Notes under the pieces: model-generated
The model's input: the letters and a program-made list of their open reading frames with translations, nothing else
Told to the model about the DNA's origin: nothing
The model's database searches: none
In this document: piece by piece, positions 3,872 to 64,000 of the stretch
Numbering within the stretch: position 1 is the stretch's first letter
Layout of the letters: every line of letters starts with the position of its first letter
Source of the DNA: Deltaproteobacteria bacterium
Lineage (GTDB): Bacteria; Desulfobacterota; GWC2-55-46; JAJCZF01
Reading direction: 5' to 3'
Length of the DNA: 64,000 nucleotides
Assembly (NCBI GenBank): GCA_029262535.1
Contig: JAJCZF010000074.1
Coordinates: 78,883 to 142,882, forward strand
Made by a program: the position numbers and the translations under genes

Positions 3872-4002
3872 ATAGTATAGCCCATGCCGGTCTTGTCGCT
3901 CAAGGAGTTTATACTTGCTATTACCACGTTTTATTGTGATACTTATAAGTTACACCCACCCAGAAAGGGCGGGTATGACAAAGTACGATAACCGGAGGCA
4001 CA

Positions 4003-5817
4003 GTGAAGAAGAGAAGAGATATACGAAATATTGCGATAATAGCCCATGTAGACCACGGTAAGACGACGCTCGTAGATGGCATGTTGCATCAGGCCGGGAC
4101 CTTTAGAGAGAACGAAGCGGTCAAGGAACGCGTCATGGACTCTATCGACCTCGAACGTGAGCGCGGCATTACGATAATGGCCAAAAATACCGCGGTTGTA
4201 TATAACGATGTGAAGATAAATATAATCGATACGCCGGGACACGCCGACTTCGGTGGCGAGGTCGAAAGAACCTTGAAGATGGTAGACAGTGTTTTTCTAC
4301 TTGTCGATTCTTCCGAGGGGCCGTTGCCCCAGACGCGTTTTGTCCTCAAGAAGGCTCTTGAACTGGGCCTTCCGCCGATACTTGTTATAAACAAGATTGA
4401 CCGGAAGGACGCGCGTATCGAGGAAGTGGTAGACGAGGTATACGACCTCTTTATAGACCTCGACGCCACGGAAGACCAGCTTGATTTCCCTATAATATAT
4501 ACTAACGCAAAGGCCGGTATCGCAAAGCTTGAGCTTGACGACGACGCTACGGATCTTCGCCACCTTTTTGAGATGATAATCGACAAGATGCCGCCGCCCG
4601 ATGAGAAGAGCGAAGAGGTATTGCAGGTCCTTGTCACAAATATCGACTATAACGACTATCTGGGCAGGCTTGCCGTAGGACGTATCTTTTCCGGCACTAT
4701 AAGGAAGAACGATCAGGTGGCCCTGGTGAATGCGGAAGGTGAGAGTACGAAGCTTAAGGCAAGTTCCCTATATACCTTCAGCGGGCTTGAGCAGGTCGAG
4801 TGCGACGAGGCCAAGGCCGGGGACATTATAGCTTTGGCCGGCATGAAAGATGTAAGTATCGGCGATACTATCACCGACCCGGAAAATCCGCAGCCCCTTT
4901 CCGGTATCAGGCTCGACGAGCCGACGATATCGATGGTCTTTTCACCCAACACCTCGCCCTTTGCCGGACTTGAGGGTAAGTACGTCACATCTAGGAATAT
5001 TCGTGAAAGGCTCGAAAAGGAGCTTTTATATAATGTCTCTATCAAGGTCGACTTCTCCCAGCCCGAGGCCTTTAAGGTTATGGGCAGGGGCGAATTGCAG
5101 CTTGCGATCCTTATAGAGATGATGCGCCGCGAGGGCTATGAGCTATCTGTCTCAATGCCCCAGACGATTACCAAAGAGATAGAGGGCAGAAAACACGAGC
5201 CAATGGAGCTTCTCCAGATAGACGTGCCCGAAGAGTATATCGGCGTTGTCACCGAGAGCCTTGCACCGCGTAAGGGCAAGATGCTCAATATGCACAACCC
5301 CGGAAACGGTCGCGTGAGGCTCGACTACCGCGTTCCAACGCGCGGCCTTATCGGCTTCAGGAGCCAGTTCATGACAGACACGCGCGGCACCGGCCTCTTA
5401 AATCATCTCTTCGACGGCTACGAGCCGTGGCATGGTGATATCACCAAGAGGAATTCGGGCGTGCTCGTTGCCGACAGGACAGGAAAGACGACAACTTACG
5501 CGCTCTTTAACCTCCAGCCGAGAGGCACTCTATTTCTGCGTGAGGGCGCCGAGGTCTACGAGGGCATGATAATAGGCGAGAACTCCAAGGAGAGCGATCT
5601 CGACGTAAATCCTGTAAAGCCTAAAAAACTTTCAAATATGCGCTCCTCCGGCTCCGACGATACGTTACAACTCATTCCGCCGAAGAATCTGAGCATGGAA
5701 GAGGCCCTTGAGTTTATCAAGGAGGACGAGCTTGTGGAGATAACTCCCACGGCTATAAGGCTTAGAAAGACGGTGCTTGCTTACAACCAGAGGTCCAAGT
5801 CCAAAAAAGCCTACTAA
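4003..5817 (+). CDS. typA: Translational GTPase TypA/BipA
   Basis: 604 aa. G1 [11 protein letters not shown]3 DTPGHADF and G4 NKIDR are present. Full-length colinearity with BipA, including the C-terminal domain. Confidence 0.95.
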
Positions 5818-5837
5818 AAGAAGAATAATAAAATAAA

Positions 5838-5872
5838 AAAGGGGCCGCGCTTTAGAGCGCGGCCCCTTTTTT
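5838..5872 (+). terminator. Rho-independent terminator of typA
   Basis: GGGGCCGCGCT...AGCGCGGCCCC hairpin followed by TTTTTTT, preceded by an A-tract. Confidence 0.85.
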
Positions 5873-5892
5873 TGTCTTAAGAACTTATAGCG

Positions 5893-6070
5893 GACAATCC
5901 AAGGAAGCGCTGATCTATTCGTGAACTCGTATCTTGCGTCTAAAATATCCAGCTTCCGCGTTGCGAATCTTCGAAATAGCTAGCTATTCCGTACGATCCA
6001 CGCCTTGAATCTGAACATTTTAGCTCGCAACCTACTTCGGTCAGAATAAATCAGAACTTCCCTAATCTAT
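5893..6070. mobile_element. MITE-like nonautonomous repeat, copy A. About 170 bp with imperfect terminal inverted repeats (GGGAAG[C/T]NCTGAT[C/T]TATTC) and an internal 14-bp palindrome AATAGCTAGCTATT.
   Basis: Its reverse complement aligns at roughly 85% identity over about 165 bp with 48006..48172. Both lie in intergenic space. Confidence 0.6.
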
Positions 6071-6319
6071 TTTTCAATTCTTAAGAAAATTATTCTTTTT
6101 GAAGTATAGTGATTTCATGCCAGTTGGGTTCGGGCGTTGAGACGATATCTCTCACCTTTGTTTCTCGGCATAATCACGGCCTTAATAGCCTATGAGTATG
6201 CCGGTTTTTACCTCTCTTGACTATCCAATAAGGTGTTATTTCGCGGATATGCCTGTTACGGTTTTTTATAAAGTATGTAGGATTAAAGACAGATTGATTC
6301 TCTTTTTTATATGCGGATG

Positions 6320-6351
6320 TCATAACAGGATCGTAACATTGCTGTCATAAT
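6320..6351 (+). promoter_or_regulatory. Candidate Pho-box-like direct repeats (TGTCATA ... TGTCATA) upstream of the small-ORF/porin/pstS module
   Basis: Two exact TGTCATA heptamers at 6320-6326 and 6345-6351, in an AT-rich spacer ahead of a phosphate porin and pstS. The spacing is not the canonical 11 bp. Confidence 0.2.
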
Positions 6352-6407
6352 CTCGTAATGATGATCTCCTATAATGGTTTCAAACAAAGTGAAAATAAAA
6401 GGAGAAA

Positions 6408-6650
6408 GTGATGTCGACGGATCTAAAGAGTTTTGAGAGAGAAGAGAGAGCAAGAAAGAAGTTTCATTTGAATATACCTGCGAAATGCCCTTTCCTGGAA
6501 GAGGAAGAAGGTATTTCCTGCGGAGCCTCTGTGAACGATACTGTCCTTGGCCGGGATGCGCTAGTTGAGCGTTGTTATAGTGAAGAGTTTGATTTCTGCC
6601 CGATATTCTTGGCCGGCGCCCTGAGCGGAGGAACGAAAAGGGCGGCCTGA
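6408..6650 (+). CDS. Small hypothetical protein with four cysteines (80 aa)
   Basis: Good RBS AAAGGAGAAAGTG before the ATG. Cysteines at residues 27, 38, 56 and 64. It is co-oriented and immediately upstream of the porin gene. Confidence 0.35.
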   Translation: MMSTDLKSFEREERARKKFHLNIPAKCPFLEEEEGISCGASVNDTVLGRDALVERCYSEEFDFCPIFLAGALSGGTKRAA

Positions 6651-41669: not shown

Positions 41670-41744
41670 TGGTGGGCGGTACTGGGTTCGAACCAGTGAC
41701 TTCCACCGTGTGAAGGTGGCACTCTACCGCTGAGTCAACCGCCC
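41670..41744 (-). tRNA. tRNA-Val (anticodon CAC)
   Basis: The reverse complement GGGCGGTTGACTCAGCGGTAGAGTGCCACCTTCACACGGTGGAAGTCACTGGTTCGAACCCAGTACCGCCCACCA folds into a cloverleaf. Acceptor 7 bp, D-arm, anticodon stem CCACC/GGTGG with loop TTCACAC, T-arm ACTGG-TTCGAAC-CCAGT, and an encoded CCA. Confidence 0.85.
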
Positions 41745-50326: not shown

Positions 50327-50544
50327 CTTTAGACCGTTCCCGGCTGGATTATGGTCGGGGCCGGTGAATTACCTGTAGATGGTTTTAAAATCAATTAATA
50401 CGAAAAACTCATAATAGATAGGCAAAAATACTCTATAGTAGTAGTTTTATTCAGGACAAAAAGGCCTTTAAGTCCTAAATAACTTTGGTGCTTACAGGGC
50501 GTTTGCGTAGTTAGAAAGTCAAAAAAGGAGAGGTGGAGGAAAAT

Positions 50545-51315
50545 ATGGAAGATTCTACAACAGGACATCACGAGCCGGAATGGGAGGTCAGTCCCTGGCC
50601 TCTGGTAGTGAGCGTAGGGGCGCTCTTTATGGTGCCGCTTGCGTTTTCTTTTTATTTTGTATATGACAAGCCGCTTATGGCGATCTTATCGCTCGGTATC
50701 GGCGTTCCGCTCGTTATCGCTTCGGTAGTCGGCTGGACAAAGGGCGGTATCGCGGACATAGCGCATCACGGCAAGGAGCCGGGTTTTGCTACCGGGGCGA
50801 TGCCGTTTTTCATAGTAGCCGAGGCATTTATATTTGTCTCGTTCTTCGCGGCCTACTGGGTCTTGAGGCTCAAGGCGCCGAACTGGCCGCCAGCGGGTAC
50901 GCCGGAATTCGGGGTGACAATCCCTATTATAATGACCATCCTTCTGGTCTCATCAAGCTTTACCATACATTTTAGCGAACACGCCATTGAGCATGGCGAC
51001 AAGGGCGGCTTTCGTAACTGGCTTATTGTCACCATAATACTCGGCGCGATATTCTTTCTCTTATCCGCATTCGAGTGGTCTCATCTGATGCACGGCGGCT
51101 TTACGATGAAGACGAATCTCTTTAGCACATTCTTCTACTCGATAACAGGTTTTCACGGTTCGCATGTTATTGTCGGCCTCATCATCTTTCTCTGCATACT
51201 CGTCTCGGCCTTCTTTGGCAAGGTGAGCAAGACATTCGTAAAGAGCGCAAGTGTCTACTGGCATTTTGTTGATCTCATCTGGTTCTTTGTCGTAACGCAG
51301 ATATACTTCTGGTAG
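50545..51315 (+). CDS. ctaE: Cytochrome c oxidase subunit III
   Basis: FYSITGFHGSHVIVG and YWHFVDLIWFFV signature blocks. 7 TM. Confidence 0.85.
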   Translation: MEDSTTGHHEPEWEVSPWPLVVSVGALFMVPLAFSFYFVYDKPLMAILSLGIGVPLVIASVVGWTKGGIADIAHHGKEPGFATGAMPFFIVAEAFIFVSFFAAYWVLRLKAPNWPPAGTPEFGVTIPIIMTILLVSSSFTIHFSEHAIEHGDKGGFRNWLIVTIILGAIFFLLSAFEWSHLMHGGFTMKTNLFSTFFYSITGFHGSHVIVGLIIFLCILVSAFFGKVSKTFVKSASVYWHFVDLIWFFVVTQIYFW

Positions 51316-51328
51316 ATGAAGGCAGACG

Positions 51329-52168
51329 ATGTCAATTCTTAAAAATACTATAATGGCGTTTGTCATGGTGCTTTTAATGTCGGGTTACGCCCTTGCCGAG
51401 TACGGCAGGGTTCCCGTCAATACGATAGATCCGGCCATTATAGAGATCGACGAGGGCGAGTTTCTTGGCACTGCGCCGGACGGTGCGACCGAGCTTATGG
51501 ATGAAAACGGAGAGATATTCAGGTTAGATTCTCTTTACGGCAAGCCCTTGATATTGCTCTTGTCCTATTACCGTTGCGACGGTGTCTGCCCGGTTGTCGC
51601 CGACGACCTGAAGAGGGCGCTGGAGGGTACGACCGGGACGCTGGCGGGGCTTGGCGGTTTTGAACGCGGCAAGGACTACTCGGTGCTCTCGCTCTCTTTC
51701 GACTCGCTCGATGATATCTCGAAGATTAAGATGTTTAAAAAGCACGCCGGTGTCGGAGACGAGGGTTGGCGTCTGGCGATATTCAAAGACCCGGAAAAGA
51801 TACAGGACTTTACCAGGTCGCTCGGTTATAAATTCTTCTGGTCAGAGAGGGACAGGACATTTATTCATCCGAATGTCCTGGTATTTCTTTCACCCGAGGG
51901 GAGAGTTACCCGTTACCTGTACGGGTCGGCAATGGATTCATCGAATATAAAGATAGCGCTCGCGGAGGCCGGTTTTGGTAAAGAAGGCCGAAGCGCAAAG
52001 CGAGAGCTTTCCGATATATTTTTGATCGCTTGTTACAGCTACAACTATAAGGAAGGTCGTTTCACCCCGAACTACCCGCTCTTTATCGCGTCGGGTTCGC
52101 TCGTCGCCGGTTTTGGATTCACGATCTTTGGCATTGTATATTTTAAAAGAAAAAAACGGAGGAGGTAA
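51329..52168 (+). CDS. SCO1/SenC-family copper chaperone (thioredoxin-like, C-x3-C-P) with C-terminal TM helix
   Basis: Signal/TM N-terminus. LLLSYYRCDGVCPVV. A downstream His is present. Confidence 0.65.
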   Translation: MSILKNTIMAFVMVLLMSGYALAEYGRVPVNTIDPAIIEIDEGEFLGTAPDGATELMDENGEIFRLDSLYGKPLILLLSYYRCDGVCPVVADDLKRALEGTTGTLAGLGGFERGKDYSVLSLSFDSLDDISKIKMFKKHAGVGDEGWRLAIFKDPEKIQDFTRSLGYKFFWSERDRTFIHPNVLVFLSPEGRVTRYLYGSAMDSSNIKIALAEAGFGKEGRSAKRELSDIFLIACYSYNYKEGRFTPNYPLFIASGSLVAGFGFTIFGIVYFKRKKRRR

Positions 52169-52172
52169 GGTA

Positions 52173-52937
52173 ATGTTCGCTAGAATTAGAAACGGATTGG
52201 TGGTCTTTCTGGCTACCCTGCCATTTGCGGCGTCCGGGGCTCTTGCGTCGTTTGGAGTCGAGGAGCCCGAAGTAGAAGGGCACCATCTTTGGGACGTGGA
52301 TGACCCTGTTGACGGATTTCATCACCTTTGGGAAGAGGTGATGATGGATATTATAATAATCGGCGTGATATTCGCCCTTATAACGCTTTATTTTCTCATA
52401 AAGTACAGGAGAAAGCATAACGGCCAGGAAGGCAGACCGCCAAAACTTTCTCGCGCGGCCAAGATGGGCTGGGTGCTTATTCCGGTTGCCATCTTCATGG
52501 CAGACGACCTCTTTCTCGCCGCCGAGGGCTGGACGCTCTGGAAAAAGTACAGAGAGGTTCCTGAAAATAATATTGAGATAGAGCTGGAATCGGCCATGTG
52601 GAGTTTTAACTTTACATATCCGAACGGCATAGAGACCTATAACGAGCTTCGAGTGCCGGCGGGCACTCCTATACTGGTCAGGATGACGAGCCGCGACGTT
52701 GTGCACTCGCTCTATATGCCGGACTTTAAGGTCAAGGAAGACTCCATGCCGGGGCGTATTACCTATCTGTGGTTTCTGCCCAAGAAGGTTGGCGAACACG
52801 TAATGACATGCGCCGAATACTGCGGCGTAATGCACTCGATGATGCACGGCAAGGTTATCGTAATGACGCCGGAGAATTACCAGAGTTGGTACAAGCAGGA
52901 ACAAGCAAAATTGGTTGAAGGAGGTGCCGGCTCATGA
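52173..52937 (+). CDS. ctaC: Cytochrome c oxidase subunit II (CuA)
   Basis: HSLYMPDF and the CuA motif CAEYCGVMHSMM. Two N-terminal TM helices. RBS GGAGGAGG before ATG 52173. Confidence 0.85.
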   Translation: MFARIRNGLVVFLATLPFAASGALASFGVEEPEVEGHHLWDVDDPVDGFHHLWEEVMMDIIIIGVIFALITLYFLIKYRRKHNGQEGRPPKLSRAAKMGWVLIPVAIFMADDLFLAAEGWTLWKKYREVPENNIEIELESAMWSFNFTYPNGIETYNELRVPAGTPILVRMTSRDVVHSLYMPDFKVKEDSMPGRITYLWFLPKKVGEHVMTCAEYCGVMHSMMHGKVIVMTPENYQSWYKQEQAKLVEGGAGS

Positions 52938-54526
52938 GTACGAAAACAGGAAAAGGAAAGGTAATAGCCGAGTGGATATTTACTACCGACCACAAGAGGG
53001 TCGGCATACTCTACCTTATCGGGTCGCTCGCGGCATTTCTCGTGGCCGGGCTTTTGGCCATGGTGATAAGGATGGAGCTATCGGAGGTCGGCCCTCAAGT
53101 AACAGACCCGAATACTTACAACGTGATGCTTTATTTTCATGGTGCGGCGATGATTCTGGGCTTCCAGATTCCGGCCCTTACCGGCTTCTTGGCAAATTAC
53201 CTTATACCGCTCCAGATAGGGGCGAAGGATGTCGCCTTTCCGAGGTTAAACGCTTTAAGCCTCTGGTTATTCTGGATGGGTATCATACTAGCCCTTCTGA
53301 CATTCGTAGTGCCGGACCCGCCGGATATCATGTGGACCGGTTATCCGCCGTACTCGATAATATCGCCGGGTAATACGGCGCTCTACGCATCTACCGTCCT
53401 CTTTATGGGATTCGCGTCGATTGCAGGTGGCGTAAACCTTATAACGACGATCATCTACATGCGCGCTCCGGGCATGACCTGGGGCAAGCTCAATATGTTT
53501 GTATGGACGACGCTTGGGGCCTTTATCATCCAGCTCGTATTCGTACCCGTACTGGGAAGTGCTGTGATAATGCTGACCATGGACAAATACCTTGGGACGC
53601 ACTTCTTTAACCCGGCCTCGGGTGGCGACGTCCTGCTCTACCAGAACCTCTTCTGGTTCTATTCGCATCCGGCTGTTTATGTTATCTTGTTACCGGTTCT
53701 AGGTATCATCTTCGACATAACCGCCACATTTGCGCGAAATCGAATATTTAACTACTGGGCCTGCGTTGTCGGCGGGGTCGGTGGAATTGTCTTAATCAGC
53801 GGAGAGGTCTGGGTACATCACCTCTTCACCTCGGGAATGCCCAACTGGATCAGGGTCGGCATGATGGTCTCGACGCTTCTCATCAGTGTGCCGGTCGGTA
53901 TCATGGTTCTTAGTCTCATCGGAACGCTCTATCGCGGCGCCATTGAGTTTAAGACACCTATGCTTTATGCGGCCGGTTTCATATTCCTCTTCCTTATAGG
54001 AGGACTTACTGGCATACCGCACGCCATCGCCTCTTTGGATCTGGCGCTTTCGGATACGCACTTTGTCGTTGCGCATTTCCATTACGTCATGGCCGTATCG
54101 GGAACCTTTGCCATAGTCGGCGGCGTATACTACCTCTTCCCGAAGTTTACCGGAAAGATGTATCACGAGGGGCTTGGCAAGATCGGTTTTGTCGTTACCT
54201 TTATCGGGGCCAATATAACCTTCTTCTTTATGTTCCTTGTGGGTCTTGGGGGCATGCCGAGGAGGTACTTTGACTACTCTCACATGCCGGAGCTTCAGGA
54301 CCTGCAACAGATAGTCACCTACGGGGCCTTTATACTCGCCGCCGGTCTCTTTATAACTCTTGCCAGCTGGCTGGTAGGTCTCTTTAAGGGTAAGAAGGCC
54401 GAGGACAACCCATGGGGTTCGAGGTCGCTTGAGTGGACTACGAAGTCACCTCCCGGACCGGGCAACTGGGCCGAGGTGCCGGACTGTACGGACTACGACC
54501 CATATGGCTACGGCGAAGACCGTTAA
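52934..54526 (+). CDS. ctaD: Cytochrome c oxidase subunit I (heme-copper oxidase catalytic subunit)
   Basis: 530 aa, 12 TM. WFYSHPAVYV, HHLFT and HFHYV-type His ligand blocks. Confidence 0.9.
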   Translation: MSTKTGKGKVIAEWIFTTDHKRVGILYLIGSLAAFLVAGLLAMVIRMELSEVGPQVTDPNTYNVMLYFHGAAMILGFQIPALTGFLANYLIPLQIGAKDVAFPRLNALSLWLFWMGIILALLTFVVPDPPDIMWTGYPPYSIISPGNTALYASTVLFMGFASIAGGVNLITTIIYMRAPGMTWGKLNMFVWTTLGAFIIQLVFVPVLGSAVIMLTMDKYLGTHFFNPASGGDVLLYQNLFWFYSHPAVYVILLPVLGIIFDITATFARNRIFNYWACVVGGVGGIVLISGEVWVHHLFTSGMPNWIRVGMMVSTLLISVPVGIMVLSLIGTLYRGAIEFKTPMLYAAGFIFLFLIGGLTGIPHAIASLDLALSDTHFVVAHFHYVMAVSGTFAIVGGVYYLFPKFTGKMYHEGLGKIGFVVTFIGANITFFFMFLVGLGGMPRRYFDYSHMPELQDLQQIVTYGAFILAAGLFITLASWLVGLFKGKKAEDNPWGSRSLEWTTKSPPGPGNWAEVPDCTDYDPYGYGEDR

Positions 54527-54554
54527 GGTCCATTTAAGATTGGCGGAGGAGCAG

Positions 54555-55460
54555 ATGCAGAAAAAAGAGGTAAAATTCTGGCCGATACTGGCCCTTACGA
54601 TATTCTTTACATATATCTTAATGGTGATGGGCACCTTTGTAACGTCCACCGGTTCGGGACTGGCATGTCCCGACTGGCCGCTCTGTTACGGCACAGTCGC
54701 CCCGCCGCTTGAGATAAGTATCTGGTTCGAGTGGGGTCACAGGCTGCTCGGAGGGGTGAGCTCCATACTGATACTCGCCTCGACCATTATCGTAGTTAAG
54801 CGTTATAAAGGGCTTCCGAAGGTCATGATGCTTTCGGTCCTTGGGCTCCTGGCTGTCGGTGTCGTAATGGGTGGAGTGACGGTTATCGTTGAGGCTCCAC
54901 TGCTTTCGACATTCTCGCATATAGCCATAATAAGCTCTCATCTTGTTATTGCGACACTCGTTCTTATATGCCTGATATTTACGCTCAGGTATGTTATTAA
55001 TGGTAACGGGGCGGCCAAGGAGGGTTACTTTAAGTTGCTCTTCGGCGTTATCTACCTGCAGGTCATACTCGGCATCGTGGTCCGGTACGCCGGTGCGACA
55101 CTTGCCTGCCCCGACGTGCCGTTTTGTAACGGTTCGCTGGTGCCTGACCTTGGCGATTACATGATCGCGCTGCACTTCATGCATCGCCTGACGGCCCTTA
55201 TCGTGGTGATCGTTGCCGCCGCCTCGCTCTACCGCGCCATTAAGGACGGCAGCCCGGCAAGGGATTTCGCCATAGCTCTTGTTCTTATCTTATTGCAGGC
55301 TACATGGGGCGTCACCATAGTTCTGAGCGGCATGTTCCTACCCTATGTAATACTGCACGCTGCAACCGGTTTCTTGTTGCTCGGATTTGTCGCATATAAG
55401 TCGATGCCCTATCTCTTCAAAATACCCCCGCTCCACGGGGGAGAAGCGGAGCGCATATGA
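54555..55460 (+). CDS. ctaA: Heme A synthase CtaA (COX15 family)
   Basis: GLACPDWPLCYG and a second CPDVPFC repeat. 8 TM. ATG 54555 follows RBS GGCGGAGGAG. The first in-frame start codon is at 54429. Confidence 0.8.
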   Translation: MQKKEVKFWPILALTIFFTYILMVMGTFVTSTGSGLACPDWPLCYGTVAPPLEISIWFEWGHRLLGGVSSILILASTIIVVKRYKGLPKVMMLSVLGLLAVGVVMGGVTVIVEAPLLSTFSHIAIISSHLVIATLVLICLIFTLRYVINGNGAAKEGYFKLLFGVIYLQVILGIVVRYAGATLACPDVPFCNGSLVPDLGDYMIALHFMHRLTALIVVIVAAASLYRAIKDGSPARDFAIALVLILLQATWGVTIVLSGMFLPYVILHAATGFLLLGFVAYKSMPYLFKIPPLHGGEAERI

Positions 55461-56368
55461 AAGTATTTGCCCAAAAGAGCAGAGCTGTCTCGCCCGTACA
55501 AGGGGAAATTCAGTCCGCACTTTCAGATTACGTTACACTCTTTAAGCCGGGTATAGTTTCACTCGTTCTCGTATCAACGCTTACCGGTATCTACCTTGCC
55601 GGACGCGGCGTGGTGGACCTTCCGACCGTCCTGTGGGCGATTGGCGGGGTGGGGCTTGCAACGGCCGGTTCGGCTGCCTTGAATAACTTCTTCGACCGCG
55701 ACATAGATTCGCTCATGAAGAGGACAAGCAAAAGAGGGCTTGTTACAGGCACGATACCGCCGGCTTTTGCGCTCTTTGCCGGTCTCTTTATGGTAATGGG
55801 CGCAATGATGATGCTCTCGATTAATGTTAATATGCTTTCGGCGGCTCTGACCATGGCTTCGGTCCTGATCTATGTCGTGGCCTACGCCATGATACTCAAG
55901 AGAACGAGTCCGCTGGCCAATCAGATAGGCGGCATAGCCGGCGCTCTGCCGCCGGTGATAGGTTACGCGGCTATGACCGGCTCGGTCGGCATTGAGGCCG
56001 TAGCGCTCTTTTTTATCGTCGCTATATGGCAACAGCCGCATGCCCTCTCCCTGGCGCTCAAGTACAAGAACGACTACGCCCGGGCGGGCATACCGGTTAT
56101 ACCGGTTGCATGCGGGGTTCCGGCGACCAAGTGGCGCATACTGCTCTATACGCTGGCCCTGCTTCCGGTCTCGACCATCCCCTATTTTATAGGCATGGCG
56201 GGCCCGATATACCTCGCGCTTGCGATAGTGTCGGGAGTGATATTTATAGGACTCTCTTACAACTTCCTCCGAGCCGAGCGTGAGTCCAATATGTTCTTAT
56301 TTATGTATTCGGTAATTTATTTGACCGTGGTATTTCTCGCCATGGTTATGGACTTGATAATACTGTAG
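55457..56368 (+). CDS. ctaB: Protoheme IX farnesyltransferase (heme O synthase) CtaB/CyoE
   Basis: UbiA-family NNFFDRDID motif. 8-9 TM. Confidence 0.85.
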   Translation: MKVFAQKSRAVSPVQGEIQSALSDYVTLFKPGIVSLVLVSTLTGIYLAGRGVVDLPTVLWAIGGVGLATAGSAALNNFFDRDIDSLMKRTSKRGLVTGTIPPAFALFAGLFMVMGAMMMLSINVNMLSAALTMASVLIYVVAYAMILKRTSPLANQIGGIAGALPPVIGYAAMTGSVGIEAVALFFIVAIWQQPHALSLALKYKNDYARAGIPVIPVACGVPATKWRILLYTLALLPVSTIPYFIGMAGPIYLALAIVSGVIFIGLSYNFLRAERESNMFLFMYSVIYLTVVFLAMVMDLIIL

Positions 56369-57667
56369 ATGGATACGATATATACAAAGAGGTGGCTCTC
56401 GGTAGCGGTGACATTCCTTGGTGTCGGCGGCTCGTTCGCATTCCTGATCGCGCTATCGAGGACGCCGTTCGGACATGCCCATTTCCCGGAGGGCTTTATG
56501 TTTCAGGGCATAGTCGGCCATGTGGTGCTCGCCATAGTGATGTGGCTTATGTCCTTTACGGTCGTCCTGTGGTCGATCTATCTTAAGGGAAGGGTCTGGC
56601 GCGGTAGTTACCACCTGGCCATAGCAGGCGCAATACTTGTCACGGTCTCGGTCTTTACCGGTTCGGGTAAGGCCATCGTTAATAACTATGTGCCGACGAT
56701 AGACGATCCGCTATTTTTCTTTGGCATAGGGTTTTTCTTTGCGGCCTTTGCGATAAACGGCCTCTCCTATCTCGCTTCGGCGATCTACCAGCTAAGATCG
56801 AAGGAGCCGTTAAAGTGCGCTATATCTTTTTCAGTGCTTATCGGTCTTTTGATGATGATTTCGCTTTGCGTCTCGCTCCTTTTAGGTTCTGGGCAAGAGG
56901 TAGAGCCGCGCATGGCCTACTTTGAAAAGTTATTTTGGATACCCGGTCATATACAGCAGGTCTTGAACGGCGCGCTGCTCATAGCGGTCTGGTACGCGCT
57001 TCGCTCGGCGCTGGGGCTTCCTAATCATGACAGAGTTTGGCTAAGGCCGTTCAACTGGATGCTGCTTTTATCGGCTCTTGTTCTATTTATAATACCCTTT
57101 GTGACCGATCCGGTTTCAAGAAACGCCAAGATCGGGGCCGAGATAATATATGGCGTCGGCCTTGGCATTCCGGTATTTGTTCACGCTATAAATATCTTGA
57201 TTGGTCTATCAAAGGCTAAAGGGAATTTCAGTGGCGTCGTATTCCTTTCTTTGGTATTATCGATGGCGATATATTTCCTCGGCATTGCCATAGCCTATAC
57301 GGGGCTCGGTAACGACACGCGCGTTCCGGCCCATTACCACGGGGCGGTGACGGGACTGACGCTTGCGATGATGGGCCTTACATATACGCTTGTCAGGTCG
57401 TCGGCAGGGGCGAAGGGAGTGCTCGAAAAGTTTGCTCGGATACAGCCGGTCTTATATGGCGCGGGCATGATACTCGTAATACTCGGCCTCATGGTATCGG
57501 GCATGTTCGGAGCTCCGCGTAAGACCTACGGTGTCGCCTTTGCAAGCGACCCACTTGTCTTGACCGCTCTGACCGTTATGGGAATCGGCACGCTGATGGC
57601 CGTATTCGGCGGAGTTTTATTTGTATCCTATTCGGGAATAAAACTTTTGGGAAGGAGAGAGTTTTGA
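56369..57667 (+). CDS. 12-TM membrane protein of unknown function with conserved His pairs, embedded in the oxidase operon (possible divergent heme-copper-oxidase-like or assembly protein)
   Basis: 432 aa. The start codon abuts the ctaB stop. HAHFPEG, WIPGHIQQ and VPAHYHGAV motifs in predicted helices. Confidence 0.55.
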   Translation: MDTIYTKRWLSVAVTFLGVGGSFAFLIALSRTPFGHAHFPEGFMFQGIVGHVVLAIVMWLMSFTVVLWSIYLKGRVWRGSYHLAIAGAILVTVSVFTGSGKAIVNNYVPTIDDPLFFFGIGFFFAAFAINGLSYLASAIYQLRSKEPLKCAISFSVLIGLLMMISLCVSLLLGSGQEVEPRMAYFEKLFWIPGHIQQVLNGALLIAVWYALRSALGLPNHDRVWLRPFNWMLLLSALVLFIIPFVTDPVSRNAKIGAEIIYGVGLGIPVFVHAINILIGLSKAKGNFSGVVFLSLVLSMAIYFLGIAIAYTGLGNDTRVPAHYHGAVTGLTLAMMGLTYTLVRSSAGAKGVLEKFARIQPVLYGAGMILVILGLMVSGMFGAPRKTYGVAFASDPLVLTALTVMGIGTLMAVFGGVLFVSYSGIKLLGRREF

Positions 57668-57672
57668 CAGAG

Positions 57673-57783
57673 ATGACAATGGAAAGAGATAATAAAGGAA
57701 AACGCAAGGTCGGTCTCATAGTGGGCGGTATAGTGTTACTTAACTTTATCGTGGCCATCCTGATACTTTCGTCGAGACTATAG
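57673..57783 (+). CDS. Candidate 36-aa single-TM micro-protein (MTMERDNKGKRKVGLIVGGIVLLNFIVAILILSSRL)
   Basis: Not in the ORF track (below 60 aa). It fills the 120-bp gap between the unknown 12-TM gene and DUF420. It has a positively charged N-terminus and one hydrophobic helix. Confidence 0.3.
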   Translation: MTMERDNKGKRKVGLIVGGIVLLNFIVAILILSSRL

Positions 57784-57789
57784 CGGCGA

Positions 57790-58194
57790 ATGGATCTTGA
57801 GCCACTGGTCTCTTACGGGAGCCGCGCTACCATTGCCCTGAGCGGCCTTGCCGTAATTACGGGTGTCGTGCTTGTTAAGACGGGACGCAAGGAGGCGCAT
57901 AAAAAAGCAATGGTTACGGCCGCGCTGCTTGCGGTAATCTTCGTTATACTGTATATTTTAAGGACCATGCTCTTTGAACACGGTCGGTACGAGGGTGATT
58001 ACAGGACCTTTTACCTCTTTACACTCGGCTCCCATACCGTAATGTCGCTTATTAACCTGCCGCTTGCGGTGGTGACGATCTACTTGGGTTTTAAGGGTAG
58101 GATAGAGATTCATAAGAGAATAGCCCCCTATACGGCGGTTGTATGGATATATGTGGCATTTACCGGCTGGCTGGTCTTTCTATTTAACAGTTAG
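57790..58194 (+). CDS. DUF420-family 4-TM membrane protein (commonly linked to caa3/aa3 oxidase operons)
   Basis: 134 aa, four helices. Sits in the cta operon. Confidence 0.6.
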   Translation: MDLEPLVSYGSRATIALSGLAVITGVVLVKTGRKEAHKKAMVTAALLAVIFVILYILRTMLFEHGRYEGDYRTFYLFTLGSHTVMSLINLPLAVVTIYLGFKGRIEIHKRIAPYTAVVWIYVAFTGWLVFLFNS

Positions 58195-58270
58195 CCATTA
58201 ACGAGAGAAAAGATTTCGCCCGGGATCGCGGTGGAACTTAAACTTAAATCCTATAAGGAGGACTTTAAAG

Positions 58271-58612
58271 ATGGAAAAAGCAAATATACTGGAAACAAAG
58301 GAATTTAGCGATACAGTCGTAAAGAAGGTTACCTATATAAAGACCGATCAGGTCGCGCAGGATACCTATTACTTCAATGCCGGGCAGGAGCTACCCTACC
58401 ACCGTCACCCCCAGGGCGATCAGGTATTTTTTGTTCAGGAAGGCACCGGCACATATACCACCGACAACGGCACGGAAGAGTCTACCGCTCTAGCGCCCGG
58501 CGTAATCGTACTTGCCCCGAAGAATGTATGGCACAAGATTGTCGCCGACACGGAGCTCGTCGTAAGCCAGGCGACTGTGCAGCCGGCCGGCATGGAGGCG
58601 CGTAACGCCTAG
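58271..58612 (+). CDS. Cupin-domain protein
   Basis: HRHPQGDQVFFVQEGTG ... two-His cupin motif. RBS AAGGAGG. Confidence 0.6.
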   Translation: MEKANILETKEFSDTVVKKVTYIKTDQVAQDTYYFNAGQELPYHRHPQGDQVFFVQEGTGTYTTDNGTEESTALAPGVIVLAPKNVWHKIVADTELVVSQATVQPAGMEARNA

Positions 58613-59014: not shown

Positions 59015-59719
59015 ATGAAAAAGACGATCCTATTTGTAGATGACGAACATATTCTTCTTGATGCTGCCGAGAGGATACTCGGAGAGTGGTTTGTCGTATT
59101 GATTGCCGGTAACGGCGAGGAAGCCCTGCGTTTATTGAATGAGGAACGGGTCGATTGCGTGGTGCTTGATCTGGTTCTACCCGGCATGGATGGCGTTACG
59201 CTACTGCGCAGTCTGCGTGAGAGAGGCTCGGATGTGCCTGTAATAGTCGTCACCGGCTGGAGCAAGCTTGAGTATGCCGAGAAGTGCGCCGACCTCGGCG
59301 TTAGCGGTTATCTAAATAAACCTTATGAATTTGAAGAGCTTCGGGACAGGGTCAAGAAGCTTACCGACTTAAATTCAAAAGGGCAGGCAGGCACACTGGA
59401 CGGTAGCGTTCATCCCAAGTTGCATGAGGCCATAGAGTATATCCATAATAACTTTGCCGGCACCGTTACGACTACACGGGTTGCACAAGAGATCGGCATC
59501 TCCTCCGACTACCTCGGTCGCCTCTTTCAAAGAACGATCGGCGAGACCCTTACCGGTTATTTGAACCGCATCAGGGTCGAAGAGGCCAAGAGACTTCTGG
59601 AGAGCACCGATAACCCTGTATCCGCTATAATGGAAAAGACAGGTTTTAAAACGGAACAACATTTCTTTTCTCTCTTTAAAAGATATGCCGGAGCCACACC
59701 AAAGAGTTTTAGAAAGTAA
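59015..59719 (+). CDS. Response regulator with AraC-type HTH output domain
   Basis: REC (FVDDEH...DLVLPGMDG) plus C-terminal AraC helices (SSDYLGRLFQR and FKTEQHFFSLFKRYAGATP). Confidence 0.85.
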   Translation: MKKTILFVDDEHILLDAAERILGEWFVVLIAGNGEEALRLLNEERVDCVVLDLVLPGMDGVTLLRSLRERGSDVPVIVVTGWSKLEYAEKCADLGVSGYLNKPYEFEELRDRVKKLTDLNSKGQAGTLDGSVHPKLHEAIEYIHNNFAGTVTTTRVAQEIGISSDYLGRLFQRTIGETLTGYLNRIRVEEAKRLLESTDNPVSAIMEKTGFKTEQHFFSLFKRYAGATPKSFRK

Positions 59720-59934
59720 GTTTCTTTAACGACTTTTTTTCTTGTCTTTCCGTCTTGTAAAACCCTCATAAATCCCGCAAACTAAAGCCAGGTGTATCTT
59801 TAAGCCTATATAGAGGACTTTTTTGTCTGGATTATTGAGCTAATTACCGCTTACCCTTATTGTTAATAATTCTTGAAGCTGTCACAATATATATATTCTG
59901 GGATCATAATAAAAATTTGACTATCGGCAAAGGA

Positions 59935-60147
59935 GTGCAGGTCTGTTTTTGCAATGTTGATAAGAGGATATTAAAAGAGGTCGCTCTTGAGAAGACGCTG
60001 CCTGCAAGCGTGCTCAAATGTCAAAACTGTTGGGACGACCTTTGCGATATAAAGATGGAACTTGATAGCGACTTATGGATGGAGCTTGCGCGAAGACGAT
60101 TGACGCTAGTATTTATGAATGACTCCTTTCGGAGCTCTGATAAATAA
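59935..60147 (+). CDS. Small CFC...C-x2-CW-motif protein, paralog a. Start uncertain: GTG 59935 or upstream ATG 59860.
   Basis: Shares ...VCFCNV...(22 aa)...CQNCW with paralogs b and c. AT-rich context. Confidence 0.35.
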   Translation: MQVCFCNVDKRILKEVALEKTLPASVLKCQNCWDDLCDIKMELDSDLWMELARRRLTLVFMNDSFRSSDK

Positions 60148-60213
60148 TAACAATAATCGCTCAGGGGCCTAACGCTACCGTTTATTAAATATTATTTTCA
60201 TTTGGAGAGTATC

Positions 60214-60420
60214 ATGAGCGCAAAATGTTTTTGTAAAGTTGTCGACGGCGAACTGGGCCTATTCCTTAAGGTCGGGCTGGTGCCGGACGAGGCCCTCTTG
60301 CACGGCTGCTGCTGGACAAGATTATCCGATGCCTATGAATCTGATAAAGATAGTTATGAAAAATCGTGGGGAGATCTTAAGGCCAGGCGTAAAGAGTTAT
60401 TAAGAGGCCGGGAGTTGTAG
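60214..60420 (+). CDS. Small CFC...CCW-motif protein, paralog b (69 aa)
   Basis: MSAKCFCKVVDGELGLFLKVGLVPDEALLHGCCWTRL. RBS GGAGAG 6 nt upstream of the ATG. Confidence 0.45.
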   Translation: MSAKCFCKVVDGELGLFLKVGLVPDEALLHGCCWTRLSDAYESDKDSYEKSWGDLKARRKELLRGREL

Positions 60421-60472
60421 TCACAGGGATTCTTCCGGCTTCGGCTTTTCTTAGTATAGGCTGGTGATTATT

Positions 60473-60622
60473 ATGCAAGAAGAGTGTTTTTGTTTTATGA
60501 GTAACAGAATAATAATAGTATATATAAAGGGCGGGCTCGTTCCCGATAGCGCCCTGAAGAGAGAGTGTTGTTGGAGCAGGATAAACAAGCTACGCAGATC
60601 CAGCCTTGAGTTAAAGAAATAG
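60473..60622 (+). CDS. Small CFC...CCW-motif protein, paralog c (49 aa)
   Basis: MQEECFCFMSNRIIIVYIKGGLVPDSALKRECCWSRI. Not in the ORF track (below 60 aa). The motif spacing is identical to paralog b. Confidence 0.4.
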   Translation: MQEECFCFMSNRIIIVYIKGGLVPDSALKRECCWSRINKLRRSSLELKK

Positions 60623-60923
60623 AGCCATATTTGGAACTCTATGATTATGAGACGCAAAGAGCTATTGAGGTGATCGTCTGAGCTGAATCGCTTATCTTTA
60701 AGGTCGTCACTCCCGCCTGTCCCGTCACATCGTTTAAATTTTAAAAAAACCCACTTGATTTAATCTTCCGAGAGATTGATAATATAATAATAGGTGCTAA
60801 AGCCTCTTTATTTTATCCGCTGGCGAACGGTCAGCTTCCTTAGTGACACCAATCTGATCTTGGTTTTCGACCACAACTCTTACCTGATAGTGTGAGCATT
60901 AAATATTTGACCCGACTCTTATT

Positions 60924-63900
60924 ATGAAAAATATTTCAATTATAATAGTTATTGATCCGGCGGACGATATACGGCCGGTAACCAGTGCGCTTGAGAAGGG
61001 CGGCTTTAGGGTAAAGCTAGAAGTGCTTTCTGACAGGAAGGCTCTTTGTTCGGCTCTTGCTAAGCGACCCTGGGACGCTGTGATAGTTACCGCTCATTCG
61101 TCCCTTGAAATGCTTAAGGTCTGCAAGGAGTGCGATCCTGATATCCCCTTCATAATAGTCTCGGATGAAACGGATGAGGCGGCAGTCGCTCATATTGCCT
61201 CCGCGATACGCGCTGGGGCGAGTGAATATGTAACATTGAAATATATCGATAATCTTCTTCCTATCCTTGAGCGGGAGCTGAAATACGCGCAGGCAAACCG
61301 GGAGAAATCTCATGCCGACGAGACCGTTGCGCACTACAAACTGCTCTTTGATAATATCTCCGATCTTGTCTACATCTGCGACGACAAGGGAGATATATTA
61401 TATCTTAATAGCGCTTTTGACAGGCTCTCAGGTTGCAAGAGAGATGACTATATTAATAAACCTTTTGCGCCCTTGTTCGATGAAGAGAATCTGAAGGTTG
61501 CGACAAAATTTTATAAGAAGACGCTTGGTGGCGAGAGCCCTACATTCGAGCTTTCTTTCAAAGAGAGCGGAATCTTATGTGAGTACAAGGCCCTTCCTCT
61601 CAGGGACGGTGATGGTAGGATAACCGGCGTGCTCGGCTCGGCCAGAGACGTTACCGGCAGAAGGCTCGCGGAAAAAGCCCTCTCCGAAGCCAATAAGGAG
61701 TTCCACGCAAAACTTACCGAGAGCGAGCTGGCACAGAGACTCTTTAAGAAGGTTCAGACCTTTGACCTGACCGACCTTGAAACCTTTCCAGAGATCGTAT
61801 ACCTTCAGGCCCGGGACCATACTATTCCTTTTGCCAACCGGCGTTTCAGGGAAGAATACGGTGAGCCCGGCGCGAGGCCCTGTTATGAGGTTATGTGGAA
61901 CAGGAACGAACCATGCGATGAATGTCGGACTTTTGAGGTCTTTGATACGCGCGAACCTATGGAATGGATATCGAATCATCTATCCAGTGGCAAATTTTAT
62001 CATGTCTACGACTATCCTTTTGAAGATACCGACGGCACTTTTCTAGTCCTTGAGATAAGCATAGATATAACGGAGCAAAGGCGCGCCGAGGAGGAGATCC
62101 GTCTTCTCGCCGAGATGACGGCCAATATTACGGAAGGGGCATCTCTGGTTAGAGTAAGCGACGGCACAATAGTTTATGCCAACGAACGTTATGAAGAGAT
62201 CTTCGGTTATGGGCCTGGCGAGCTTATATCTAAACATATAAGCGAGATCAATGCGCCTTCGGAAGATGGCGAAGATGCCAAGGACGACAAAGAGGTCTTT
62301 ACAGAGGTCTCCGCAGCGCTCAAACGTGACGGAATATGGACGGGCGAGGTAAGGAATCTAAAAAAAGACGGAACGATCATAACGACATATGCGAAGGTCA
62401 GCGCCTTTGAGTCCACGAAGTACGGCGCCGTCTGGTTGGGCATGCTGGAGGACATTACAGAGAAGAAACGGGCGGAGAAGGCCCTTGTCGATAGTGAGGC
62501 GCGTTTTAGGAGATTGGTGGAGACGACACCGCACGGTATTCAGGAGAACGATCTGAATGGAACTATTACCTTCAGTAACCTGGCTCACGCAAAGATGCTC
62601 GGCTACGAGGAAGGCGAGCTGGTGGGCAGGGCCATATGGGATTTTTATGAAGATGACGACGAGCGGCAGGCAATAACTAAATATCTTCAATACCTGATCG
62701 TGGAAGAGCCGGTCCCTTCCTCATATGTAGGCAAGAATATTACAAAAGACGGCAGGTCTATATATCTTCAGATCGACTGGAACTATATGCGTGACGACAA
62801 AGGAGTTCTTATAGGTTTTGTATCGATCATTACCGATATAACAGAACAAAGAGAGGCCCGTGAGGAGCTTGAAGAGAGCAGGGAACTGCTGGAGTCGGTA
62901 ATAGACAACTCCACGGCTGTTATATATATAAAAGACCCTGAAGGAAGATATATTCATGCGAATCGCTGTTTTAATAGACTTTTTAACCTGACAAAAGATG
63001 AAATTTCAGGCAAGACGGATCATGAACTCTTTCCTTTAGAGGCGGCCGATGCCTTTCGTAAAAATGATTTGGAGGTGATAAAGGCCGGAGCTCCACTTGA
63101 GTTTGAAGAGATAGCCTATAGTGTGGACGGCCCTCATACATATATCTCCAAAAAGTTTCCGCTATATGATTCCTCTCAGACCCTATATGCCGTCTGTGGC
63201 ATCTCCTCCGACATAACCGAGCGCAAGAGGGCGGAAGAGGCTCTAAAAGAGAGCGAGCAGCGTTTCAGGGCCGTATTTGAGAACGCTATCGACGGTATAG
63301 CCATCGCCGATATAAGCGACAGGTCAATATATACCTGTAATGAGACTTTTGCAAAGATGCTCGGTTATACGATTGAAGAGGTTACGGGGCTAAAGGTTGA
63401 AGATCTACATCCGAAAGAGAGCAGCGCTCTCGAAGAATTCGAGTTGGTCTTAAAAAAAGAAAAGAAGTTTGTAGGCGATTTTCCCGTTTTAAGAAAAGAC
63501 GGAACTATCTTTCATGCCGATATCAGTCCTTCAGTTATGAATATTCAGGGCAAAGAGTTAGTAATGGGTATCTTTAGAGATATTACGGAGCGGCTCGAAT
63601 CCTACGAGGAGAAGGAGAGGCTTCAGGAACAGCTCATGCAGTCGCAGAAGATGGAGGCCATCGGTCGCCTGACAGGCGCGATATCGCACGATTTTAATAA
63701 TATGATGATGTGTATTACGACACTCTGCCGCCTTGGAATAATGGACTCTGATGAAAACGGACCGGTCAGGGGATATTTTGGCGAGATAGATAATGCCAGC
63801 AAACGCGCTCGTAACCTGACCAGCTTGATTGCTAACTATGGCCTCAAAGGACTGCTTCAGTCTACAAGAGTCGACATCAATGAGGTTATTGAAAGCGAAC

Positions 63901-64000
63901 TTATGGACCTACTCTCAAGGTTAATAGGCGTCAACTATGAGATAAAATATGATCTGGCGGAGAGCCTATGGTCGGTTTATGTTGATAAGGCGCATATAGA
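60924..64000 (+). CDS. Multi-PAS sensor histidine kinase with N-terminal receiver-like (pseudo-receiver) domain. The 3' end lies beyond the window.
   Basis: Manual translation from ATG 60924 is open to the window end. A REC-like fold lacks the canonical DD...D...K residues. At least 5 PAS/PAC blocks follow, then the H-box AISHDFNNMM. It is missing from the ORF track because it has no stop in the window. Confidence 0.7.
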   Translation, partial: MKNISIIIVIDPADDIRPVTSALEKGGFRVKLEVLSDRKALCSALAKRPWDAVIVTAHSSLEMLKVCKECDPDIPFIIVSDETDEAAVAHIASAIRAGASEYVTLKYIDNLLPILERELKYAQANREKSHADETVAHYKLLFDNISDLVYICDDKGDILYLNSAFDRLSGCKRDDYINKPFAPLFDEENLKVATKFYKKTLGGESPTFELSFKESGILCEYKALPLRDGDGRITGVLGSARDVTGRRLAEKALSEANKEFHAKLTESELAQRLFKKVQTFDLTDLETFPEIVYLQARDHTIPFANRRFREEYGEPGARPCYEVMWNRNEPCDECRTFEVFDTREPMEWISNHLSSGKFYHVYDYPFEDTDGTFLVLEISIDITEQRRAEEEIRLLAEMTANITEGASLVRVSDGTIVYANERYEEIFGYGPGELISKHISEINAPSEDGEDAKDDKEVFTEVSAALKRDGIWTGEVRNLKKDGTIITTYAKVSAFESTKYGAVWLGMLEDITEKKRAEKALVDSEARFRRLVETTPHGIQENDLNGTITFSNLAHAKMLGYEEGELVGRAIWDFYEDDDERQAITKYLQYLIVEEPVPSSYVGKNITKDGRSIYLQIDWNYMRDDKGVLIGFVSIITDITEQREAREELEESRELLESVIDNSTAVIYIKDPEGRYIHANRCFNRLFNLTKDEISGKTDHELFPLEAADAFRKNDLEVIKAGAPLEFEEIAYSVDGPHTYISKKFPLYDSSQTLYAVCGISSDITERKRAEEALKESEQRFRAVFENAIDGIAIADISDRSIYTCNETFAKMLGYTIEEVTGLKVEDLHPKESSALEEFELVLKKEKKFVGDFPVLRKDGTIFHADISPSVMNIQGKELVMGIFRDITERLESYEEKERLQEQLMQSQKMEAIGRLTGAISHDFNNMMMCITTLCRLGIMDSDENGPVRGYFGEIDNASKRARNLTSLIANYGLKGLLQSTRVDINEVIESELMDLLSRLIGVNYEIKYDLAESLWSVYVDKAHI

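Follow-up and report, generated by a model that had tools for sequence, protein, structure and literature searches.

Three small open reading frames (ORFs) lie side by side between two signalling genes in a 64,000-nucleotide (nt) stretch of contig JAJCZF010000074.1 (positions 78,883 to 142,882; Deltaproteobacteria bacterium, assembly GCA_029262535.1), here called the window. With high confidence we regard them as real coding genes of a new protein family and not as precursors of ribosomally synthesised and post-translationally modified peptides (RiPPs), one of the options raised in a preliminary description made from the letters alone. The ORFs fill, on the plus strand, the gap between a gene for a receiver (REC)-AraC response regulator, which ends at 59719, and a gene for a multi-PAS signalling protein, which begins at 60924. 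ORF1 (59935..60147, plus strand) encodes 70 amino acids (aa) from a GTG codon, with the cysteine pattern CxC...C-x2-C-W...C and a complete fourth helix (WMELARRRL). ORF2 (60214..60420, plus strand), a full-length family member of 68 aa, starts at an ATG with a GGAG Shine-Dalgarno sequence 7 nt upstream and carries the first four cysteines of the family (Cys1-4, CFC...CCW), without Cys5 and Cys6. ORF3 (60473..60622, plus strand) encodes 49 aa from an ATG with GGTGA upstream at normal spacing, and is truncated to the three-helix N-terminal module with Cys1-4 and no helix 4.

ORF2 and ORF3 have in common M-x3-CFC...G-LVPD-x-AL-x3-CCW-xR and match each other by BLASTP at E=3e-12, and ORF1, which carries the variant CFC...LP...VLK-C-QN-C-W, matches ORF2 at E=0.006 in an alignment that reaches into the tail (SD...W-EL-RR-L); resemblance among the three is well beyond chance expectation. 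Coordinates and similarities agree with the preliminary description, which had reported three adjacent same-strand small ORFs with this motif; its count of four cysteines fits ORF2 and ORF3, whereas ORF1 has five, with the third ligand shifted to give C-x2-C-W and not CC-W. Its statement that the tails are unrelated does not hold for ORF1 and ORF2, in both of which the tail is the conserved helix 4 (W-x-[DE]-L-x2-RR-x2-L); the tail of ORF3 is unlike that of ORF2. The low GC content it had noted is borne out by values of 0.409 at 59720-60923 and 0.502 for the whole window. A family hidden Markov model (HMM; alignment A5) matches ORF2 at E=3.6e-19, ORF1 at E=3.6e-16 and ORF3 at E=8.5e-16, scores that are partly circular because A5 contains ORF1-3 themselves; the independent support comes from the relatives found with the three-sequence profile alone, described below. 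No other ORF of the window matched the family profile. Gene callers had found the array incompletely, NCBI annotating ORF2 alone (P0001, also in Logan) and the Logan caller ORF2 and ORF3 only.

The coding status of the array is best judged against a second one, on a contig from the same sequencing run (SRR15505517; locus L002), which holds six family members, all encoded in the same direction. Of these, the first three (P0004, P0003 and P0007) are the reciprocal best matches of ORF1, ORF2 and ORF3, in identical order, at 79, 82 and 49.7 bits, the last score being tied with the sixth L002 member. Protein identities are 53% (ORF1-P0004), 51% (ORF2-P0003) and 48% (ORF3-P0007), and DNA identity is only 65-70%, in short stretches, with the protein motif kept. 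Substitutions at codon positions 1/2/3 number 22/19/38 for ORF1, 24/15/39 for ORF2 and 16/17/34 for ORF3, and the Nei-Gojobori ratio of nonsynonymous to synonymous substitution (dN/dS) is ~0.18 for ORF1 and ~0.12 for ORF2, with dS near saturation. Between ORF2 and ORF3 themselves, the codons for LVPD are distinguished by synonymous third-position changes alone. The REC-AraC regulators adjoining the two arrays are 49-53% identical, so the degree of conservation of the mini-proteins (48-53%) is roughly that of a genuine regulator. No conserved ORF was found on the opposite strand of the array. Judged by this substitution pattern, ORF1-3 are protein-coding genes under purifying selection, as expected of the genuine paralogous genes originally proposed, and by the same comparison the triplet predates the split of the window and L002 genomes, the array being old and its order kept.

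Relatives of these genes are rare. Neither Pfam nor NCBIfam returned a family for ORF1-3 at E<=10, word-indexed homology searches with ORF2 and with a three-sequence profile recovered only the window's own proteins, and a search of genome contigs with that profile gave no related locus. When the three-sequence profile was run exhaustively with HMMER against 1.84 billion representatives, 53 proteins scored E<1e-3 (two are spurious matches to repeat proteins), and a second search with the domain alignment gave 99 clusters at 90% identity, all labelled 'hypothetical' and none with a Pfam domain. A degenerate DNA pattern applied to GTDB genomes added ten more members (10 true main-clade members among 46 matches). 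The members in GTDB genomes come from Dissulfurispiraceae and three Nitrospirota, from Candidatus Zemynaea, Blastocatellia and Acidiferrales (with Acidobacteriota among the phyla), from Syntrophomonadaceae and Planctomycetota, and from one unclassified bacterial metagenome-assembled genome (L012); one named isolate, Hoyosella sp., is among the members. In metagenomes the motif pattern recovered at least three true main-clade members and, among the matches listed, no sub-clade member (see below), and it had no match in 2.9 million viral contigs. The domain matched nothing in PHROGs, PADLOC or PDB sequences, 52 members compared with Pfam, NCBIfam, PHROGs and PADLOC showed matches only to fused cold-shock domain (CSD) or zf-Di19 parts, a PDB sequence search with the N-terminal domain of a 178-aa fused class gave nothing, and a literature search on the motif strings found nothing relevant. 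By these searches the family is sparse, spread across at least five phyla with its cysteine motif conserved, and uncatalogued in the curated libraries consulted, in line with the earlier remark that the motif was not recognised as a described family.

The domain comprises ~65 aa and reads C-x-C, exactly 16 residues, [IV]-P-[DE]-x-A-L-x3-C-C-W-x2-[IL]-C-x-V-R-G, a variable loop and W-x-[DE]-[IL]-C-x-[RK]-R-G-[YH]-L, usually with a C-terminal NPRGF. Most members are stand-alone proteins of 63-100 aa; in others the domain forms the C-terminus of proteins of 120-590 aa, the ~590-aa Planctomycetota member among them, whose N-terminal parts are a CSD (P0038, 3e-14), a weak C2H2 zf-Di19 match (P0014) or unrecognised domains. 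ORF1-3 combine significant profile matches with the family pattern C-x-C, 16 residues, P-x2-[AV]-L-x3-[C]C-W. ORF1 and ORF2 keep W-x-[DE]-L-x2-RR and are without Cys6 and NPRGF, ORF3 is without the whole helix, and the window genes therefore form a divergent sub-clade. This sub-clade, characterised by CFC or CIC, no NPRGF and the absence of Cys5 and Cys6 in most cases, is very rare and known from five loci only (the window, L002, L006, L007-L009 and L176). The main clade is basic, with a consensus isoelectric point (pI) of 8.7; the pI of ORF1 is 5.3 and that of ORF2 6.6, and none of the three window proteins has a hydrophobic segment.

Structure prediction, proposed earlier as a check on the paralogs, gave confident folds for ORF2 and ORF3. 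The AlphaFold2 model of ORF2, made with an 85-sequence alignment, is all-alpha (predicted local distance difference test (pLDDT) 87.6, predicted template modelling score (pTM) 0.72), with four helices at residues 11-20, 25-29, 31-43 and 45-66, and that of ORF3 (pLDDT 81.5) has three helices that are the first three of ORF2. The L002 counterpart of ORF3, P0007 (55 aa), is truncated too, which marks the three-helix form as a conserved variant rather than the product of a damaged gene. A fold search of the ORF2 model in PDB and BFVD gave no informative neighbour. From these models, the family is predicted to be a ~65-aa all-alpha domain of four helices.

The distribution of the cysteines was analysed over 135 aligned members. 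All six are present in 66, whereas 13 have lost Cys1-4 jointly and kept Cys5 and Cys6; a single loss among the first four (C1, C2, C3 or C4) occurs in about 25 members, and losses of Cys5 and Cys6 are independent of each other. ORF2 and ORF3 retain Cys1-4 and have neither Cys5 nor Cys6. In the ORF1 lineage (ORF1 and P0004) Cys3 is absent and a cysteine stands two residues upstream instead, which gives C-x2-C-W. The joint loss and the positional compensation suggest that Cys1-4 work together as a single thiol centre, which would serve as a metal site or as a redox switch. The small metal-binding protein that the preliminary description offered as its other option is plausible. A main-clade sub-group whose Cys1-4 are gone (P0120, P0123, P0124, P0128, P0131 and P0134, including the Hoyosella protein) still shows ICQVRGRN...C-ARRGYL...NPRGF with hardly a change, and on that ground a role separate from the quartet may reside in the conserved C-terminal half and the NPRGF end.

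Signalling genes recur in the genomic context of the sub-clade. The REC-AraC gene (59015..59719, plus strand; Pfam Response_reg 4e-29, HTH_18 7e-21) lies directly upstream of the array and is the sole neighbour conserved between the window and L002 arrays. Scanned with a receiver-domain HMM, three of the five sub-clade loci (window, L002 and L006) have REC genes, compared with 4 of 153 control loci (Fisher p=5e-4), the controls being chance-match loci that cover 956 kb. The L002 array has as neighbours a split REC-AraC, an HD-GYP fragment and another REC, and at L006 the order is CBS-PAS-histidine kinase, REC-GerE, mini-protein and methyl-accepting chemotaxis protein. The L007-L009 locus, which shares synteny at 46-52% identity with the left flank of L002, consists of an abhydrolase, a single mini-protein and SpoVG, with no REC gene. 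Copy number thus varies from one (L007) through three (window) to six (L002).

On the basis of these observations, we speculate that ORF1-3 are translated, cytoplasmic mini-proteins of this uncatalogued all-alpha ~65-aa family, in which the N-terminal CxC, together with the CC(W) or C-x2-C-W that opens helix 3, would supply a thiol quartet. The quartet might bind Zn, Cu(I) or an Fe-S cluster, or switch between thiol and disulfide, and the stand-alone proteins could act in trans as accessory 'connector'-type modulators or sensors of the adjacent REC-AraC and multi-PAS proteins, with ORF1, ORF2 and the truncated ORF3 as specialised variants. Taken as a whole, this picture of thiol-quartet mini-proteins acting on neighbouring two-component proteins is a tentative one. 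Several observations count against it. ORF1 has no convincing arrangement of start codon and Shine-Dalgarno sequence: its start is uncertain, AAGGAG directly abutting the motif-proximal GTG at 59935 and the alternative in-frame TTG codons at 59917 and 59860 having no Shine-Dalgarno sequence. The association with receivers comes from three loci in two independent lineages, and counting the window and L002 as one gives p=0.007; in the main clade REC genes occur at 1 of 16 loci, which is not significant, and L007-L009 has none. Main-clade neighbours are heterogeneous (two peptidases M16, two Ser/Thr kinase-TPR proteins, two UvrD-type helicases, HAD and GT87). Single cysteine losses are tolerated, and the 13 members without Cys1-4 mean that the quartet is not essential for the fold. 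A bolder generalisation we consider doubtful: that ORF1-3 are the first known examples of a new class of four-helix mini-sensors, built around a thiol or metal centre and serving as trans-acting two-component connectors, with arrays of 3-6 copies (conserved truncated three-helix forms included) diversifying to couple redox or metal state to several regulators, and with the NPRGF clade employing the same module by itself or, at the C-terminus of nucleic-acid-binding proteins, as a sensor.

We give equal weight to a second possibility, that these are structural zinc (or Cu or Fe-S) mini-proteins whose role is unrelated to their signalling neighbours; they might, for example, bind nucleic acids or proteins, or buffer or chaperone metal close to the cytochrome oxidase (cox) operon, the adjacency to regulators being coincidental or regulatory. 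The lack of receiver-gene enrichment in the main clade would fit such a role, as would its basic character and the CSD of P0038 and weak zf-Di19 match of P0014, which suggest nucleic-acid-binding partners; on the other hand, the acidic to neutral ORF1 and ORF2 do not suggest nucleic-acid binding, and no structural relative of the fold points to this role. For a metal chaperone, the attraction is a complete haem-copper oxidase cluster (50533-58612), upstream of the REC-AraC gene and on the same, plus strand as the array, with COX3, SCO1-like, COX2, COX1, CtaA, CtaB, COX1-like, DUF420 and small cupin genes by Pfam. The cox operon itself stops ~1.7 kb before the array, none of the cluster's genes was recognised as a Cox11/CtaG-type CuB chaperone, and the CFC of ORF1-3 recalls the CFCF copper motif of Cox11. 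Against this, L002, L006 and L007 have no cox genes, neither the cox genes nor the cupin reappear at the other sub-clade loci, and REC-AraC is the only neighbour that the window and L002 retain in common. The second COX1-like ORF of the cluster (56369-57667) is divergent and matches at E=4e-12 only.

That the array is cargo of a mobile or defence island, such as a toxin-antitoxin, anti-defence or other conflict component whose copy number expands and contracts, seems unlikely to us. Both arrays are indeed GC-poor relative to their flanks (0.41 vs 0.48-0.50) and copy number differs between the window, L002 and the syntenic L007; furthermore, the Hoyosella member adjoins an AAA_21/SMC_N ATPase, an HD_4 protein and a UvrD-like helicase, the fused member at L141 also adjoins a UvrD helicase, and one CSD-fused member matches the retron Se72 effector model, through its CSD. 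Yet no PADLOC or PHROGs model matches the domain, the viral contigs and BFVD gave no motif or fold match, there is no integrase, transposase or tRNA beside the window array, and the array is old, its orthologs in different genomes having diverged to the same degree as the gene next to it.

We rejected the reading as RiPP or bacteriocin precursors, in which a modifying enzyme would act on a conserved N-terminal leader and a variable C-terminal core would be matured, and judge it highly unlikely. RiPP precursors such as those of lanthipeptides, sactipeptides and thiopeptides resemble ORF1-3 in being short and Cys-rich, in occurring as tandem paralogs and in the conservation of their N-terminal part, and the differing ORF3 tail and the AT-rich islet would suit them. 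However, no radical SAM, YcaO, LanB/C/M, cyclodehydratase, peptidase-ABC exporter or other RiPP enzyme is encoded within ~10 kb in the window (Pfam annotation of 50.5-64 kb), and no such enzyme was found at L002, L006, L007 and ~15 main-clade loci, about 20 related loci in all; the search for rSAM, YcaO and lanthipeptide enzymes around relatives that the preliminary description had put forward was therefore negative. What it took for a variable core is, in ORF1 and ORF2, a conserved helix common to several phyla; unlike RiPP precursors, the family is conserved over its full length, the whole chain is confidently folded in prediction, the domain also stands at the C-terminus of larger proteins, and there is no conserved double-glycine or other leader cleavage motif. 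Finally, the idea that the ORFs are repeat DNA or frames open by chance in AT-rich spacer sequence, to which the poor start context of ORF1 and the incomplete gene calls might lend colour, is already refuted for practical purposes by the family profile matches across phyla and by the third-position excess and dN/dS well below 1, the opposite of the equal rates at all codon positions that the preliminary description had associated with a mere repeat, and it is further contradicted by the retention of the protein motif in L002 at 65-70% DNA identity and by the lack of any Rfam match or conserved opposite-strand ORF in the region.

Should the thiol centre prove to be a sensor of metal or redox state that acts on neighbouring response regulators or PAS proteins, the connector concept, known mainly from enterobacteria, would be extended to environmental lineages and to a new fold; if these are structural zinc mini-proteins, they would be a useful but ordinary new domain of unknown function. 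The family is undescribed in the libraries consulted, but small uncharacterised families of Cys-rich proteins beside regulators are familiar. Small proteins tend to escape annotation: NCBI called one of three genes here, and every relative found is labelled 'hypothetical'. Since Pfam, NCBIfam, PHROGs, PADLOC and the PDB have no entry for it and its fold has no informative neighbour, the domain deserves to be defined as a family and to have its structure solved.

The surroundings of these loci show a number of further features. Downstream of the array, the multi-PAS gene (60924..64000, plus strand; open frame from 60903) encodes more than 1025 aa and leaves the window; the preliminary description placed the islet between a REC-AraC regulator and a PAS kinase, and of these the regulator stands, whereas the downstream gene shows PAS only (five stretches), with no kinase domain inside the window. 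The N-terminal 139 aa of this protein (60924-61340) are weakly receiver-like, matching Response_reg and FleQ at E ~0.03, below the cut-off, and by eye have a Thr (DAVIVT) in place of the phospho-acceptor Asp, which suggests a degenerate pseudo-receiver. The AT-rich intergenic segment upstream of ORF1 (59720..59934, plus strand) contains a promoter-like site at 59881-59910 (GTCACA-18-CATAAT), identified by consensus match only; the scan found 6 sites where 3.2 +/- 1.7 were expected, which is weak evidence, and the site, if real, favours the short ORF1. A 24-nt AT-rich inverted repeat, 75% complementary, flanks ORF1 (59857-59880 / 60133-60156) and may be due to chance in AT-rich DNA. Comparison of the intergenic regions of the window array with those of L002 revealed no promoter or operator motif in common. 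The sole Rfam match in the window is a tRNA gene at 41673-41744 on the minus strand.

At L002, a 36-aa hydrophobic ORF (3946-4056; MQMEKIPAYLKTVIINFFAIISGSIIASLIAYIFLP) lies between the first and second family members; it has no counterpart in the window, where the corresponding gap is just 66 nt. The REC-AraC homolog there is split into a REC ORF (5330-5764) and an HTH ORF (5786-6043), and the HD-GYP ORF (6137-6523) spans only the C-terminal half of the HD_5 model; in this Logan contig, frameshifts, pseudogenes or assembly errors could be responsible. In the segment 8001-8571 of L007 (GCA_029262495.1; also in L008 and L009), the single-copy member P0028 has CCM and not CCW and overlaps the start of SpoVG by 11 nt, an arrangement that suggests translational coupling. 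In the main clade, a TPR-Ser/Thr kinase is found near two unrelated loci (L003 and L012) and a UvrD-like helicase near two others (L004 and L141), at L141 directly adjoining a fused member of 218 aa; these recurrent neighbours may hint at sub-family-specific partners.

Several known groups of small cysteine proteins offer comparisons. WhiB-like (Wbl) proteins are small (80-120 aa), all-alpha [4Fe-4S] regulators with four conserved cysteines, often present as multi-copy paralogs, with accessory roles in sensing redox state or nitric oxide. The family described here is similarly small and all-alpha, with four cysteines and paralogs; unlike the Wbl spacing C-x(14-22)-C-x2-C-x5-C, followed by a G[VI]WGG turn, its own is C-x-C-x24-CC-W, and a WhiB-like identity was rejected on this spacing, together with the absence of a Pfam or NCBIfam match to Whib or any other model and of any PDB sequence or fold match. 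Cu(I)-thiolate proteins (Cox17 with CCxC, Cox11 with CFCF, CopY with CxCx4CxC, and metallothioneins) share with the family CxC and CC pairs and tolerance of the loss of one ligand, and the window array lies downstream of a cox operon with SCO1 and no recognisable Cox11/CtaG. However, Cox11 has an Ig-like beta fold and Cox17 is a CHCH hairpin; the family fold differs from both, no homology was detected, and the other sub-clade loci (L002, L006 and L007) are without cox genes.

The two-component connectors PmrD, MgrB, SafA and CacA are, like ORF1-3, stand-alone proteins of 50-85 aa encoded beside, or under the control of, two-component genes. No sequence relationship to them and no curated library match for ORF1-3 was detected, and MgrB and SafA are membrane proteins, unlike ORF1-3. 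CacA is a protein of 63 aa with four conserved cysteines that activates CpxRA in a thioredoxin (TrxA)-dependent manner (PMC3533512). CacA and MgrB depend on conserved cysteines. The functional analogy with these connectors is drawn from gene neighbourhood, and by this analogy, with low confidence, ORF1-3 may modulate their neighbouring two-component proteins as CacA does.

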